From: an uncultured Bacilli bacterium
GTDB lineage: Bacteria; Bacillota_I; Bacilli_A; RF39; UBA660
NCBI GenBank assembly: GCA_934101115.1
Contig: CAKOPW010000001.1
Location: 73,295 to 137,294 of the forward strand
Reading direction: 5' to 3'
Length of the DNA stretch: 64,000 nt
In this document: positions 13,832 to 19,672 of the stretch, piece by piece
How positions within the stretch are numbered: position 1 is the first letter of the stretch
How the letters are laid out: each line of letters begins with the position of its first letter
Translations under genes and position numbers: made by a program
The notes under the pieces: model-generated
What the model was told of the DNA's origin: nothing
The model's input: the letters and a program-made list of their open reading frames with translations, nothing else
The model's database searches: none

Positions 13832-16069
13832 TTAATCTTGACTTATCAATGTTATTTTTGCGTATCCATTGCCGGTGTTTCCAACAGCAGTAGATAATCC
13901 ATCATGAGAAGGCATTTGTGTTTTGGTTCCTTTAACAGTTGTCCAACTATAGCCATTACCATCTATCATTGTTGTGTTTTTAAAAATGATATTGCTGTAA
14001 TGATATGAGCAAGTTATATCGGTTGTTCCATCCTTACATGTTGCTCCCTTACTATCACTTCTTGGTGTAGTACTGTTTTGTGATGAAACCGCAACACAAC
14101 CAGCGTGTCCGGAGATAAATGATGAACCACCACCAGCACCCGAAACGGCTGTATGACCTCCGGCCCCTACCCAATCATAAAAATTTCCAGACCAGTATCC
14201 GTTTCCTCCAGTATTATTATAAAAATAGCTTCCTCCGGTATTAAGCAAAGGAACGTATCCAAAGGCGTGACCTGAAGTTTGAGTGGCGCCTTGAGCTCCT
14301 GTATGTTCTGTAACATTACCAGAAACACAACTTCCACCTTGATAACCAATCAAACCTCCAGCTGACCCTCCATATGGACTTCCCCCGTCAGTTGGATTTA
14401 AACCGCCTTGAGCTCCACCGCCGCCAGCAACCATTATTCTTGAAGTGAGAGATGATAGACTATCCCAACTACCATTTACTAACCTTATATCAGTGGCTCC
14501 TCCTCCAGTTTTAGTATAATTTTGATAACCATAATTGAAAACATAGTCCGTTGACGAAGAATCTAATCCAGATCTTCCAACATAAACATAAAATTTATTG
14601 CCTTTTTTAGCATTTAATTCACCACTTACATAACTTCCGTTTGCCGTTTGATAATAAGCGCCACCTTGCGCTCCCCAAAGCTCAAATTTGTAGGTTCCAT
14701 TTACAGGAGCGATAAAAATTTGTTCACCTCCGGTGTAGTCATAAGTCCATACTTTTTGACTATCATAAGCTTTTTTTGTTCTAGATACTTTATTTAGTTT
14801 TAACTTACATATTAAAGATTTACTATTGATATTATTTATAACTTGATTAGTGCTTTCTTGTGCTTTAATTTCTATTTGTTCGGTTGTTACATTAGTTGGT
14901 GATGATAATAAAGTGATACGAGCATATCCATTTCCTTGCTTTGCACAGTTTTCAGTTGGTGTTGCACTTGTACATGTAGTATTTATTGTTTTTGTATTTT
15001 CTTCGGAAGATTCTTCACAGCTATAGCAATACATACTTTTTTCACTTAAAAGTGAATTACCAATATAACCTGATCCTCCAGCTCCGGATCCTCCCCAAGA
15101 AGCTCCACCTCCATAGAAACCACCACCACCTGATGCCGATGCAAATTCTTTAGTTGTTGTCGATCCACCTCCAACTCCAAAATTTCCATTTAGCCATGAT
15201 TCTTTAGAATTACCAGTTAAGTTACCTCCACCGTAACCTCCGGAGCTTTGTGTTCCACCGGTTGGATTGTTGTTCGCGATTGTTCCATTTGAATAGTTTT
15301 TTGTTGTAGTGGAACCGACATAGCCTCCACCAGCACCGCCATTATCTGCTAACCACCAAGTGCAGGCTCCGCCTCCGCCTCCTGCGACAATTAAAATACC
15401 ATTTAATTTTGAACTAAATTGAGATAGATTTCCACTGTTACTTAATATATGAGTTGAACCACCACCAGTACTAAAATTGATATTGTTTGTATCAGGATTA
15501 TTAACTCTTACATTTCCACTATTAGGATAAGCATATACTACTCCTGAAGATCCGGATGAGTTTAAATTTTTTCCCTTTTCCCCAACATAAATATAAATTT
15601 TGTCACTAGAAGGTAAATTTATTGTACCACTAGAGTACCCTCCATATCCTCCGTGATAACCGTTCGAATCTGTTCCTCCTTGAGCTCCCCATACATCAAA
15701 CTTATATGTTCCACTAACTGGTACAGTAAATGTTTGCTCTCCTCCTGTATAATCATAGTTCCAAACTTTTCCTACATTTTCATCTTCTTTTACACATTCT
15801 AAATAAGCTTCTGTATCATATTCTGTTGAATCATTTACTATATCTACACTTATGTCTCCATTTATATCACTTATTGTAAATTCATCTTTTGCATCGTTTA
15901 TTCCATCCACTTCAGTACCATTTACTTTTAATGAAGATAGGTATACTTTGAAATCATTTAAGTTTTCGGCTAGCTTTGAATTTCCATATATATTTATTGT
16001 TGCATTATATGCTGCATATCCGATTGTCATAAATAAAACTGTTATCAAAAGTATTGGCATCTTCTTCAT
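13832..16069 (-). CDS. Secreted or anchored glycine-rich protein with two Gly-rich (ALK/LTK GlyR-like) modules
   Basis: 745 aa with an N-terminal hydrophobic leader. Two repeats each contain W.YDYTGGEQ.F..PV.GTYKF..WGAQGG...GGYGG, poly-G blocks (VAGGGGG, GGGGFYGGG) and a Cys-rich end MYCYSCEES...CAKQGNGYARITL. Confidence 0.75.
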   Translation of the reverse strand: MKKMPILLITVLFMTIGYAAYNATINIYGNSKLAENLNDFKVYLSSLKVNGTEVDGINDAKDEFTISDINGDISVDIVNDSTEYDTEAYLECVKEDENVGKVWNYDYTGGEQTFTVPVSGTYKFDVWGAQGGTDSNGYHGGYGGYSSGTINLPSSDKIYIYVGEKGKNLNSSGSSGVVYAYPNSGNVRVNNPDTNNINFSTGGGSTHILSNSGNLSQFSSKLNGILIVAGGGGGACTWWLADNGGAGGGYVGSTTTKNYSNGTIANNNPTGGTQSSGGYGGGNLTGNSKESWLNGNFGVGGGSTTTKEFASASGGGGFYGGGASWGGSGAGGSGYIGNSLLSEKSMYCYSCEESSEENTKTINTTCTSATPTENCAKQGNGYARITLLSSPTNVTTEQIEIKAQESTNQVINNINSKSLICKLKLNKVSRTKKAYDSQKVWTYDYTGGEQIFIAPVNGTYKFELWGAQGGAYYQTANGSYVSGELNAKKGNKFYVYVGRSGLDSSSTDYVFNYGYQNYTKTGGGATDIRLVNGSWDSLSSLTSRIMVAGGGGAQGGLNPTDGGSPYGGSAGGLIGYQGGSCVSGNVTEHTGAQGATQTSGHAFGYVPLLNTGGSYFYNNTGGNGYWSGNFYDWVGAGGHTAVSGAGGGSSFISGHAGCVAVSSQNSTTPRSDSKGATCKDGTTDITCSYHYSNIIFKNTTMIDGNGYSWTTVKGTKTQMPSHDGLSTAVGNTGNGYAKITLISQD

Positions 16070-16103
16070 TTTTACATCTTCCTTATCTTTCTATTTTTAT
16101 TTT

Positions 16104-16131
16104 ATAATACCCCCCCCGATTTTCAAGTCAA
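16104..16131 (-). promoter_or_regulatory. Sigma-A-type promoter of glycine-rich gene 1 with a G8 tract in the spacer
   Basis: Minus strand reads TTGACT (16131-16126), then a 16-nt spacer tgaaaatcGGGGGGGG, then TATTAT (16109-16104). The C8 run on the plus strand is at 16110-16117. Confidence 0.55.
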
Positions 16132-16147
16132 ACCAAAAAATTTTGCA

Positions 16148-16173
16148 CAAAAAAATTATGCTTTTTTGCATAA
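16148..16173 (-). terminator. Weak terminator after glycine-rich gene 2
   Basis: On the minus strand: TTATGC-aaaaaa-GCATAA followed by T7. Confidence 0.4.
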
Positions 16174-16178
16174 CTTTT

Positions 16179-18329
16179 TTAATCTATACTTACTAAAGTA
16201 ATACGCGCATATCCATTTCCTTGCTTTGCACAGTTTTCAGTTGGATTAGAATTCACACATGTTGTTGAAATTGTTTTAGTTGATATTTCAGTTGACTCAG
16301 TACAATTATAGCAGTACATCGCCTTATTTGATAAAAAAGAATTTCCAATATAACTAGATCCTCCACCGGCTCCAGATATTCTACTACCTCCGCCTCCATA
16401 GAAGCCGCCGCCACCTCCTACAGAATATTGTGATAAATTGAAATTGTAGTCATAACCAAGTCCAAATGAGCCACAAAGTTTATTTTCATTGTTACAACCA
16501 GCGGCAGTTTGAGTTGCTCCTAAACCATATGTATTAGCTACTGCATGAGCGGATAAGTTATATCCATCTTGTCCCTTAACTCCTCCAGCTGACCCTCCAG
16601 TACCATAATTAACCGTATTACAATATGTTCCTCCGCCGCCTCCACCGGCAACAATTAATATTTGGTCCTTATTATTTTCTAAAGTTGATAGTAAACCTGA
16701 TGTGGTTGCTATATGCGTTGCTCCGCCTCCAGAACTATTTAAACTGTACCTACAACCACGATTATTATTTTTGGCTGATCCCCCACCATTATAACCACCT
16801 TCAACAAAGCGATTAAAAGAAGTAGCTGTTTGACCAGTTCCTCCTACATTGATATAAAGAGTATCGTTAAGATTTAAATTTACATATCCTATAGAATAGC
16901 CTCCATAACCTCCACTATAAACGTCAGTAGCGCTGCCACCTTGGGCTCCCCATACCTCTAACTTATATGTTCCAGTTTCTTTTATAGAGTATTTTTCTTC
17001 CTCTCCTGTATATATAAAACTTGCTTCATTTTTTTCTTTAGAGTTTTCTTTAGATACTTTTTGAATTTTGAGACTGCAAACTAATTTCTCGCCAGTAACA
17101 TTCATAAATTTTTGCTTTAACGTGGAAGAAGATTTTATGTTGTTTTTGTTGGAAGAAAAACCAACTGGTGTCCACTCGTAGCTCTCAATAAAACTAATCT
17201 TAGCATAGCCATTTCCGGATTTAGGACAATTTGCAGTTGGTGTTGCACTTGTACATGTTGTACTTATTGTTTTTGTAGATGTTTCACTTGATTCCGTACA
17301 ATTATAACAATACATACTTTTTTCTAACAACAGTGAATTCCCTATATAACTTGAACCTCCAGCACCTGCTCCGATGTTTGCTCCACTTCCACCATAATAC
17401 CCACTTCCTCCTCCGGAACCTGCTCCGTCATGGTATATAGTCATAGCAGAATTTCCACCTTGTCCAAAAGATCCACAGTCAGCTCCGTTGCTATTACAAC
17501 CAGCCGAGCTTTGATTTCCGGGATTTGAAAGACGGCCGACACCTGTATAATCTTGTAATAAATTTGTTGGTCTCATACCTGTATATCCTCCTGCTGAGCC
17601 TCCAACACCACCATTTGAACCATTGGTATAATGTCCACCTCCGCCTCCTGCAGCTACAATAATTAAATCTTTTTTATTGTTTACAAATGTAGATAAAAGA
17701 CCTGACGAAGTTGCTATATGTGTCGCTCCGCCTCCACCAGCAGCTAGAGATTCAGTTTGAGTGTATGCTAAAGCTGAACCGCCTCCATTATATCCTCCAT
17801 CACATCTAGTAGCAGTTGTACAATTTTTACCTGTTGATCCAACATTGATATAGAGCTTATCATCAACGCTCAACTCTATATTTCCTTTTGAATAACCACC
17901 ATAGCCTCCATGAAATTCATCATTTGCACTTCCACCTTGCGCTCCCCAAACTTCTAGAGTATACACTCCGTTTACTGGTGCAGTAAATGTTTGTTCGCTT
18001 CCTGTATAGTCAAAAGACCATTCATCACCAGCAATCTTTTTTGTAAGTTCACACTCTAAGTAAGCATCGGCATCATATTCTGTTGAATCATTTTTTATTT
18101 CATATTCAACGCTCCCATTTAAAGTAGAGTCTATTGTAAATTCGTCTTTTGCATCATTTATTCCATTCACTTCTGTTCCATTTACTTTTAATGAAGATAA
18201 GTATACTTTAAAGTCACTTAAGTTTTCAGCTAGCAATGTATTTCCATATATGTTTATTGTTGCATTATATGCTGCATAGCCTATTACCATAAATAAAACT
18301 GTTATCAAAAGTATTGTTGTTTTCTTCAT
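16179..18329 (-). CDS. Paralogous glycine-rich protein with two Gly-rich modules
   Basis: 716 aa. The first ~65 aa and the 5' leader are nearly identical to those of 13832-16069, and the architecture is the same (WGAQGG..GGYGGYS.., MYCYNCTES...NGYA.I). Confidence 0.75.
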   Translation of the reverse strand: MKKTTILLITVLFMVIGYAAYNATINIYGNTLLAENLSDFKVYLSSLKVNGTEVNGINDAKDEFTIDSTLNGSVEYEIKNDSTEYDADAYLECELTKKIAGDEWSFDYTGSEQTFTAPVNGVYTLEVWGAQGGSANDEFHGGYGGYSKGNIELSVDDKLYINVGSTGKNCTTATRCDGGYNGGGSALAYTQTESLAAGGGGATHIATSSGLLSTFVNNKKDLIIVAAGGGGGHYTNGSNGGVGGSAGGYTGMRPTNLLQDYTGVGRLSNPGNQSSAGCNSNGADCGSFGQGGNSAMTIYHDGAGSGGGSGYYGGSGANIGAGAGGSSYIGNSLLLEKSMYCYNCTESSETSTKTISTTCTSATPTANCPKSGNGYAKISFIESYEWTPVGFSSNKNNIKSSSTLKQKFMNVTGEKLVCSLKIQKVSKENSKEKNEASFIYTGEEEKYSIKETGTYKLEVWGAQGGSATDVYSGGYGGYSIGYVNLNLNDTLYINVGGTGQTATSFNRFVEGGYNGGGSAKNNNRGCRYSLNSSGGGATHIATTSGLLSTLENNKDQILIVAGGGGGGTYCNTVNYGTGGSAGGVKGQDGYNLSAHAVANTYGLGATQTAAGCNNENKLCGSFGLGYDYNFNLSQYSVGGGGGFYGGGGSRISGAGGGSSYIGNSFLSNKAMYCYNCTESTEISTKTISTTCVNSNPTENCAKQGNGYARITLVSID

Positions 18330-18362
18330 TTTTACATCTCCGTATCTTTCTATTTTTATTTT

Positions 18363-18390
18363 ATAATACCCCCCCCGATTTGCAAGTTAA
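18363..18390 (-). promoter_or_regulatory. Duplicate promoter of glycine-rich gene 2 with a G8 tract in the spacer
   Basis: Minus strand reads TTAACT (18390-18385), then a 16-nt spacer tgcaaatcGGGGGGGG, then TATTAT (18368-18363). The C8 run on the plus strand is at 18369-18376. Confidence 0.5.
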
Positions 18391-18413
18391 TTCAAAAATA
18401 TTTGCACAAAAAT

Positions 18414-18446
18414 CAAAAAAACATCATTTTATAGTTGATGTTTTTG
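18414..18446. terminator. Bidirectional hairpin terminator, probably the end of the mnmA transcript
   Basis: ACATCA-ttttatagt-TGATGT flanked by A7 on the left and T5 on the right. Confidence 0.5.
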
Positions 18447-18470
18447 GTAAAATCGTGATATCATTTATTT

Positions 18471-18542
18471 GGTGAGCAAATCACCTGTTTATGGGAATAC
18501 TCATAGACACCACTTTGGTAGCTCTTCTCGGCTACCTTTTTT
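18471..18542 (+). ncRNA. Candidate small RNA (about 72 nt) of unknown class
   Basis: Plus strand has TTGATG (18435-18440), 18 nt, then an extended -10 TGaTATCAT (18456-18464). It also has hairpin GGTGA-gcaaa-TCACC, and a terminator GGTAGC-tcttctcg-GCTACC followed by T6 that has a U-tail only on the plus strand. No plus-strand ORF is present. Confidence 0.25.
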
Positions 18543-18562
18543 GTTGCAATAAAAAAAGCTTT

Positions 18563-19672
18563 TTATAAATACCAAAGCTTTTCTCCGTTTTTTCTAACTG
18601 TTTTAATTATTCCTGATCCAATACATTGTTCACCTAGATAAATAACACATGCTTGTCCTGGAGTAACTGCTGGAACTTTTTCTGGATAACTTACTTTTAT
18701 TTCATTATTATCCAAATATTCTAACATTACTTCATAATCCGGCCCACGATATCTAAATTTTGCTGTTGCAAATGTTGGGTGATTTGGGCTAATCAAGTTA
18801 ACGTCTTCAATTATACACTCATCACTATAAAGGGTTTCTGGATTATCACCAAAAGCGACAAATAAGATATTTTTCTCTACATCTTTTCCAACAACAAAAT
18901 GTTTATCTTTAAAACCTGATACTCCAACATTTCTTCTTTGACCAATTGTATAATTCATTAAACCATTGTGAGTACCAATAATTTCTCCTGAGTCTATATC
19001 AACTATATTACCTGGATTAGGTTTTAAATAGTTATGTAAAAATTTTTGATAATTTCTTTCTCCGATAAAACAAATACCTGTGGAATCTTTTTTCTTGGCT
19101 GTTGGAAGATTTATCTTACTTGCAATTTCTCTAACTTCACTTTTTTCTAAATCACCGACTGGAAATAAAACATCTTTTAATTGGTCTGCTGATACTTGAG
19201 CTAAAAAGTAAGTTTGATCTTTATTAGAATCAACTCCTCTTAAAAGTTTGTTTCCAACTATTCTAGCATAATGACCTGTTGCAATATAATCAGCTCCAAG
19301 TTTTTTTGCTTCTTTTTTAAATAAATCAAATTTAATATATTTGTTACACATTAAATCAGGATTTGGAGTTCTTCCTTTTTTTAATTCATCCAAGAAATAT
19401 GTGAATACGTTATCCCAATACTCTTTAATAAAATCAACCCTATGTAAAGGAATACCTAAAGTGTTACAAACCTCTAACGCATCATTATAATCTTGTTCTT
19501 GCGGACATATATTATTTCCTAAATTAGGATTTCCTTCTGTATCATTATTAACTAAAGAGTCCCAATTTCTCATAAACAGTCCAATTACTTCGTATCCTTG
19601 CTTTTGTAGTAAATAAGCAGCAACTGATGAATCAACACCGCCACTCATACCAACAACAACTTTTTTAGCCAT
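18563..19672 (-). CDS. mnmA: tRNA 2-thiouridine(34) synthase
   Basis: PP-loop VVGMSGGVDSSVAA and the rest of the MnmA sequence (CNKYIKF, GHYAR). Confidence 0.95.
   Translation of the reverse strand: MAKKVVVGMSGGVDSSVAAYLLQKQGYEVIGLFMRNWDSLVNNDTEGNPNLGNNICPQEQDYNDALEVCNTLGIPLHRVDFIKEYWDNVFTYFLDELKKGRTPNPDLMCNKYIKFDLFKKEAKKLGADYIATGHYARIVGNKLLRGVDSNKDQTYFLAQVSADQLKDVLFPVGDLEKSEVREIASKINLPTAKKKDSTGICFIGERNYQKFLHNYLKPNPGNIVDIDSGEIIGTHNGLMNYTIGQRRNVGVSGFKDKHFVVGKDVEKNILFVAFGDNPETLYSDECIIEDVNLISPNHPTFATAKFRYRGPDYEVMLEYLDNNEIKVSYPEKVPAVTPGQACVIYLGEQCIGSGIIKTVRKNGEKLWYL

Follow-up and report, generated by a model that had tools for sequence, protein, structure and literature searches.

The minus strand of the 64,000-nt stretch of DNA analysed here (the window) carries a run of eight G's in front of the gene for a 716-aa secreted protein, and a second one in front of its 745-aa paralogue. 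The question raised by this locus is whether such a homopolymer is a switch, as proposed by the initial annotation, which saw two surface genes with a switch each and thus four ON/OFF states, or a promoter part of fixed length. The window belongs to a genome of 1.54 Mb in 65 contigs with 27.4% GC (G000), which we have compared with those of its relatives and with contigs from other samples.

The tract and its promoter in the window

The letters are exactly those that had been reported, i.e., TTAACT (18390-18385), tgcaaatc, G8 (18376-18369, C8 on the plus strand) and TATTAT (18368-18363) on the minus strand, followed by aaaataaaaatagaaagatacGGAGatgtaaaaATG and the ATG at 18329. A twin core with the same sequence is found at 16131-16104 on the same strand, with its G8 at 16117-16110, 2.26 kb from the first tract. 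Runs of at least seven G are confined to these two sites in the 64-kb window; the overlapping count of such matches is 4, with 0.22 expected, and 0 of 100 shuffles of the window reach 4. From about -45, the upstream regions, the leaders and the first ~200 coding nt of the two genes align almost identically (mean column identity of 87% over 398 columns), in agreement with what had been noted.

The promoter boxes were set by comparing about 100 paralogous and orthologous copies. The conserved boxes, TTGMAA paired with TAAAAT, lie 5 nt downstream of the hexamers chosen initially, and since paralogues and relatives conserve these boxes and their spacing, the locus is read here as TTGCAA (18385-18380), a 16-nt spacer and TAAAAT (18363-18358). 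Thus, the placement of the tract in the -35/-10 spacer of a sigma-70-type promoter stands, but the hexamers had to be shifted, and TTAACT/TTGACT was discarded as a -35 box because it is not conserved among the ~35 copies. Under either reading of the boxes the homopolymer lies in the spacer, as in transcriptional phase-variation loci. The features of the region are the following:

18401-18406, minus strand: upstream block TGCAAA/TGTAAA, 14 nt 5' of the -35 box, of high information content in 33 copies
18380-18385, minus strand: -35 box TTGCAA, invariant as TTGmAA in the 33 copies of G000; consensus scan match TTGCAA-16-TAAAAT
18369-18376, minus strand: G8 homopolymer, at about -25 to -18, within the 16-nt spacer 18379-18364
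18358-18363, minus strand: predicted -10 box TAAAAT, 16 nt from the conserved -35 box; TATACT at the homologous position in a sister subfamily
18363-18390, minus strand: earlier reading TTAACT-16-TATTAT, a consensus match whose -35 box is not conserved across copies
16179-18329, minus strand: open reading frame of the 716-aa secreted protein, with GGAG 8 nt before the ATG
16148-16181, minus strand: hairpin with A-tract, stem and U-tract between the two genes (-12.9 kcal/mol, z = -2.8)
16099-16126, minus strand: twin promoter TTGAAA-16-TAAAAT, with G8 at 16117-16110
13832-16069, minus strand: open reading frame of the 745-aa paralogue, with two PF12810 domains

The predicted -10 box overlaps the block TATTATAAAATAAAA (18368-18354), which is invariant across the 33 copies, and transcription of the 716-aa gene would start near 18351, that of the twin near 16092. 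The TGCAAA/TGTAAA block might be an UP element or a regulator half-site. The hairpin is the terminator of the upstream (716-aa) gene, and because it separates the two genes, they form separate transcription units.

Two other readings of these motifs were rejected by inspection: a sigma-54 promoter at TTGCA, since a GG element is missing at -24 and TTGAA stands in most copies, and a divergent promoter from the reverse complement of TGTAAA, which has no -10 box at the right distance. A scan of 15900-18700 against Rfam gave no match at E <= 1 and the RNA of the G8 leader was predicted to be unstructured, so that a role at the RNA level is unlikely and was set aside.

A promoter cassette for a family of secreted proteins

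The runs of G or C in G000 number 77 of 5 nt, 8 of 6 nt, 2 of 7 nt and 33 of 8 nt, and none is longer. All 33 G8/C8 runs lie within one promoter cassette, cTTGmAAATC-G8-TATTATAAAAT (m = A/C), whose invariant core, cTTG(A/C)AAATC-G8-TATTATAAAATAAAA, sits 24-40 nt 5' of the start codon. The CTTGmAAATC motif, the run and TATTATAAAATAAAA are invariant among the 33 copies, together with the TGTAAA/TGCAAA block 14 nt upstream, and the -35 variants of other copies are TTGAAA, TTGACA or TTGATA. Three extra copies of the cassette in G000 have G7 or G6. There is also a G7 run with cassette-like flanks inside a coding region (C34:5948).

The cassette stands mostly 5' of genes of a modular secreted-protein family, and 5' of a few non-family genes too. 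Behind 32 of the 33 G8 runs the product has an N-terminal signal peptide or signal anchor, so that in G000 the repeat is over-represented at genes for exposed products, as in a contingency-locus family. The exception is C13:17289, where the gene behind the cassette TTGACAAAATC-G8-TATTATAGACT encodes a product that lacks a signal peptide (MNIDFKIATLNDVEEIVD..) and resembles an acetyltransferase by eye.

The 716-aa protein consists of an N-terminal hydrophobic signal or anchor, the family module and two ALK/LTK-type glycine-rich domains. PF12810 matches twice in this protein (E = 4e-76) and twice in the 745-aa paralogue (E = 1e-70). The N-terminus of the 716-aa protein, MKKTTILLITVLFMVIGYAAYNATINIYGN, contains no Cys and hence no lipobox. 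About 55 matches to the N-terminal module of the family were found in G000. This common module of ~160 aa begins with an MKK..IG(F/Y)AA signal or anchor and continues with ..TYEVTNNSSNYDAEV.VTC..EEYTCKLEFNAVER, and it is followed by variable C-terminal domains, i.e., PF12810, DUF6273 and several unrecognised ones. An NCBIfam search returned no family for the cassette-driven proteins, and exact-protein look-ups of the 716-aa product and of the 283-aa product of a G7 locus returned no record. The family genes that lack a cassette of their own lie a short distance 3' of a cassette gene with only a ribosome-binding site between them, and thus one promoter can serve a small operon. In C20:100-4324 of G000 and similar arrays, tandem family genes with gaps holding only a ribosome-binding site follow a single G8 promoter, and a single tract may there control up to four genes.

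The two family genes of the window occupy the slot between mnmA and dnaG, which we have compared with four other sequences (L011, L223, L224, and L225; 13832-18560). In one other sample of the same species a single 366-aa gene replaces the pair. Among the relatives, a family gene occupies this slot in G012 (MnmA 94% identical), together with a G8 cassette, and in G001, together with a promoter of another type; the slot is free of family genes in G016 (MnmA 99% identical) and G002. The content of the slot thus differs among close relatives, and variation has a second layer, the gain and loss of genes.

A conserved element of ~100-170 nt is found on the opposite strand just upstream of many family genes; its copy in the window is at 18414-18542 (plus strand), and others are at C6:26531, C9:216, C11:40270, C15:17002, C16:32590, C21:178/9132, C49:4506, and C56:3011 of G000. 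It contains a hairpin terminator (..GCATCCTTATTCAGTAGAATAAAGATGC and a T-run) and a block GTGGTAAGCATC...GCTTCTCACTAAATAAAATATAACA, and a unit 3' of mnmA (..GTGGTGTCTATGA..CTCACCAAATAAATGATATCA), conserved in G016, G001, G012, and G002, looks related. These elements are probably small-RNA or type I toxin-antitoxin-like modules, and they are often paired with cassette promoters. Concerning sigma factors, sigma-70-family genes are found at 14 places of G000 (e.g., C12:25249, C39:5479, C9:35227, and C7:17437/18287), several of them of sporulation-sigma size (236-269 aa), and one on C39 stands 2 kb from a G8 cassette.

Tract length among species, loci and samples

In a search of one genome per GTDB species, the exact core was restricted to one genus of uncultured Bacilli from the human gut and, within it, to four species, represented by G000, G012 (CAKOKD01), G016 (CAKOJJ01), and G001 (Firmicutes bacterium CAG:582); G012 and G016 are Hadza MAGs. 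Variants of the core are present in G019 and G002, and in the other species of the genus the protein family is present and the G-run promoter is absent. The cassette occupies 35-41 loci per genome of 1.3-1.5 Mb.

The more distant relatives G019 and G002, of the same genus, have a sister subfamily with the promoter TTGACA-ATC-G8-TATTA-TATACT, i.e., a perfect -35 box, a 16-nt spacer and a good -10 box, and TTGACA also occurs in six copies of G012 and one of G001. Where the run has decayed (GGGGAGGC, GGTTGGTG, AGTGGCAG, GTGTAGGT, and G7AAAA), the spacer is still exactly 16 nt, and several of these copies have a TG-extended -10 box. Because copies without the homopolymer retain the 16 nt, G8 is probably the working length. 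One homologous promoter in G019 (GGGGGAGGAG) and another in G002 (GAGGAAGGAG) have a purine block and no homopolymer, with a spacer 2 nt longer. The family genes of G019 and G002 that have a TTGTATAAT-type promoter (L105, L107, L108, L121, and L127) are preceded by a palindrome, TGTAAA-N3-TTTACA, that looks like the operator of a family-specific regulator. The G8 cassettes retain one half-site of this palindrome, TGTAAA/TGCAAA, 14 nt 5' of the -35 box.

The lengths of the run were distributed as follows:

Four genomes: G8 85, G7 5, G6 3, G9 1, interrupted 2 (GGGGTGGG and GGGGAGGGGG), GT+G8 2; about 87% G8
69 metagenome-contig sites: G8 54, G7 4, G6 7, G9 1, interrupted 3, GT+G8 0; 78% G8

One G10 was found in the TATACT subfamily. 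In the four genomes, length changes outnumber substitutions in the run by 9 to 2, and contractions are commoner than expansions. The open reading frame is intact at every G6 and G7 locus of G000. Grouping the 69 metagenome sites by short flanks mixed paralogues, and 1.5-kb flanks at >=97% identity were used instead; since they left only one orthologous pair, the metagenome scan provides a length spectrum without isogenic contrasts.

Such contrasts were obtained from contigs of other samples that encode exactly the same protein. The window locus has G8 in four of four assemblies (the window, L011, L012, and L013), with 7 substitutions in 7 kb between the window and L012 and 2 in 1.7 kb between the window and L013. 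The twin tract is G8 in both assemblies in which it was seen (the window and L012), and G8 is also found in the orthologous slot of the sister species G012. At C15:10813 the run is G6 in G000 and in three other assemblies that are otherwise identical over up to 3 kb. The tandem pair C20:17025/19338 combines G6 (C20:17025) with G8 in both G000 and L141, and therefore neighbouring tracts are not locked together. Given that the assemblies are independent, the G6 alleles are real and heritable, not miscalls.

Changes of length are observed in G012. Its G9 locus has G8 in two other samples, from each of which it differs over 8,000 nt by the tract alone; between those two samples there is no difference in 14.5 kb. 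One G7 locus has G8 in another Hadza sample, with the tract as the sole difference in 11,435 nt, and differs from a third sample by one substitution and the tract in 3.3 kb. None of the A/T runs of at least 8 nt (3-9 in the G012 isogenic alignments) has changed. In a further G7/G8 contrast the gene is identical and the upstream context is different. The run, with both contraction (G7) and expansion (G9) relative to G8, changes much faster than any other site in the compared regions of G012, an error of low-coverage assembly being possible. One assembly of ~10x coverage (ERZ4559413) is the source of the traceable G7 and G9 alleles and of two of the three contrasts between samples, so that these alleles may be homopolymer miscalls, and G-tract lengths in Illumina data need error-controlled sequencing (PMC9187656). 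Unless the low-coverage assemblies erred, the sole differences over 8.0 and 11.4 kb mean that the tract is hypermutable in G012.

These results change the proposal of two switches. The maintenance of the tract in both copies is confirmed by its conservation throughout the family, and each paralogue does have its own tract behind separate transcription signals, with the hairpin between them, but no variation in length was seen at either tract. The variation that had been anticipated is seen between near-identical strains of G012 at paralogous promoters, not among the four assemblies of the window locus or the two of the twin. The four-state picture is too small, because one cassette serves ~35 loci per genome, and too strong, because no switching is seen at either locus of the window. 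Free ON/OFF flipping does not fit either, since the run is exactly G8 in most copies and non-slippery copies share its 16-nt spacing, which points to a selected working length. The scatter of lengths among loci and strains that characterizes contingency loci is not found, and the G6 alleles are stable across samples.

Readings of the tract and comparison with known systems

The reading that we favour, and hold to be fairly probable, is that of an expression dial set by slippage in the spacer, with G8 as the selected working length. The G8 would be the central part of the 16-nt spacer in a promoter of the housekeeping-sigma type, TTGCAA-N16-TAAAAT, and promoter, leader and signal peptide would form one cassette that drives about 35 modular secreted-protein genes per genome. 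Replication slippage would now and then add or remove one G, the spacer would follow the tract (14 nt for G6, 15 nt for G7, 17 nt for G9), and the transcription of a single gene or small operon would change heritably. G8 would be the default kept by selection and, most probably, the length at which the gene is expressed, and the contracted alleles would be low or off states able to persist, so that each locus would work as a slow, individually settable dial and not as a fast flip-flop. Selection of G8 is suggested by the 16 nt held in non-slippery copies, by the predominance of G8 and by the conservation of the run at the orthologous slot across species. We infer the effect of length on transcription, its reversibility and which length is ON; on/off switching at the 716-aa gene is plausible and unproven.

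Several observations count against a dial. The window locus, its twin and the orthologous slot of G012 are all G8, and a uniformity of 87% is unlike classical contingency loci, whose lengths scatter. G9 is rare although it gives the textbook-optimal 17 nt. MutS and MutL are both encoded and should damp 1-nt slippage; because of them slippage is probably damped, which fits the modest variability. The uniformity of the run in four species is what would be expected from a fixed-sequence element, in which the G-block is kept, for example, as a contact of a family-specific regulator or the polymerase, or as a stiff GC-rich spacer in need of an activator at the upstream TGTAAA, and length changes are occasional damaging mutations. 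The non-homopolymeric purine block at the same place in the relatives (GGGGGAGGAG and GAGGAAGGAG), the conserved TGTAAA or palindromic TGTAAA-N3-TTTACA upstream of family genes and the few non-family genes driven by the same cassette point in the same direction. However, several functional-looking copies without G-richness (AGTGGCAG, GGTTGGTG, and ATCTACTT) retain spacing and boxes, so that the common constraint is the spacing and not the sequence; substitutions within the run are rarer than length changes (2 versus 9), and in several samples G6 alleles are retained in front of intact genes. On this evidence we regard a fixed element as unlikely.

The run might also have no role of its own and be uniform because the 5' cassette was duplicated recently and paralogues are continually homogenised through gene conversion or recombination. 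Promoter, leader and the first ~200-480 nt are indeed far more alike than the 3' parts, the mnmA-dnaG slot gains and loses family genes between close relatives, and contigs break at the cassette. Yet the 29-nt core is invariant across at least three subfamilies that differ in leaders, signal peptides and the sequence just upstream of the -35 box, and also across species with 94% MnmA identity, and a neutral slippery run would spread in length, which makes such hitch-hiking improbable. Still more remote is reiterative transcription, with the run at the start of an upstream promoter, TGTAAA-16/17-GAAAAT (inside cTTGAAAATC), and nucleotide sensing of the pyrG type. The conserved TGTAAA block lies at a suitable distance, relatives have GATAAT at that place and some loci have further promoters upstream, but 14 of 35 copies, including the window locus, have GCAAAT and thus lack the essential A at position 2 of the -10 box, making this upstream promoter unlikely. 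The deviating base is acceptable at position 4 of a -35 box, the perfect TTGACA variants suit a -35 box as well, and in the leader poly-G would find neither a structure nor a terminator to act on. We give this mechanism very little credence.

Taken to the scale of the genome, the spacer dial would amount to a 'phasome' of a commensal, in which the 35-41 loci per 1.3-1.5-Mb genome are each tuned independently by one-base slippage, any population has about 10% of its loci in an alternative state, and selection holds the default length, which gene conversion may help to restore; we put this forward tentatively, as possible. If true, a gut bacterium with a small genome controls all of its modular secreted proteins, with their glycine-rich ALK/LTK-type domains, DUF6273 and further modules at the C-terminus, via one reusable mutable promoter, a large and cleanly organised promoter-level contingency system would exist in a commensal and not in a pathogen, and the tract length of each locus would be a simple marker of surface-state heterogeneity, readable from metagenomes. 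Should the tract be no more than a fixed element of the spacer, what is left is a lineage-specific promoter motif.

As a spacer dial, with switching still hypothetical, the cassette would belong to a known kind and be unusually large in scale. The vlp genes of Mycoplasma hyorhinis form a surface multigene family with a conserved cassette of promoter, leader and signal peptide and a poly-A in the -35/-10 spacer; they switch singly, generating combinatorial surfaces, and their fast ON/OFF switching has been demonstrated. The resemblance to the system described here (a multigene surface family, a common cassette and a homopolymer in the promoter spacer) is one of mechanism only, since the sequences are unrelated, the tract is poly-A instead of poly-G and the products are lipoproteins, unlike the 716-aa protein with no lipobox Cys. 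There are about seven vlp genes in one cluster, versus ~35 dispersed loci here.

In Bordetella pertussis (fim2, fim3, and fimX; poly-C) and Neisseria meningitidis (porA and opc; poly-G/poly-C), a homopolymer sets the spacing between a recognition site and the -10 box and hence the level of transcription, with intermediate levels, i.e., as a dial. As in the present cassette, the homopolymer separates an upstream element from the -10 box of genes for surface structures. Their tracts, in contrast, have 10-15 nt and are visibly variable among isolates, and these Gram-negative pathogens have one to three such loci per genome.

[quoted passage not shown] T. pallidum (tp0126; tprE/G/J, and tprL) shares with the system described here a poly-G of about 8, located within the promoters of paralogous surface genes or immediately 5' of them. 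It differs in having few loci instead of 35-41 per genome, unrelated sequences and tracts that scatter in length within strains; the tpr start site lies 4 nt after the tract, which is thus not a -35/-10 spacer. The function of the tracts has been shown experimentally in T. pallidum, whereas here it is proposed from sequence. Bifidobacterium breve, in which pilus G-tracts slip at replication and vary the surface structures of a gut commensal, differs in that its tracts are intragenic and frame-shifting (G10-G11) and not promoter spacers, with two loci studied; it shares with the bacteria of this work a life as a gut commensal with G-tracts at genes for surface structures (PMC9187656).
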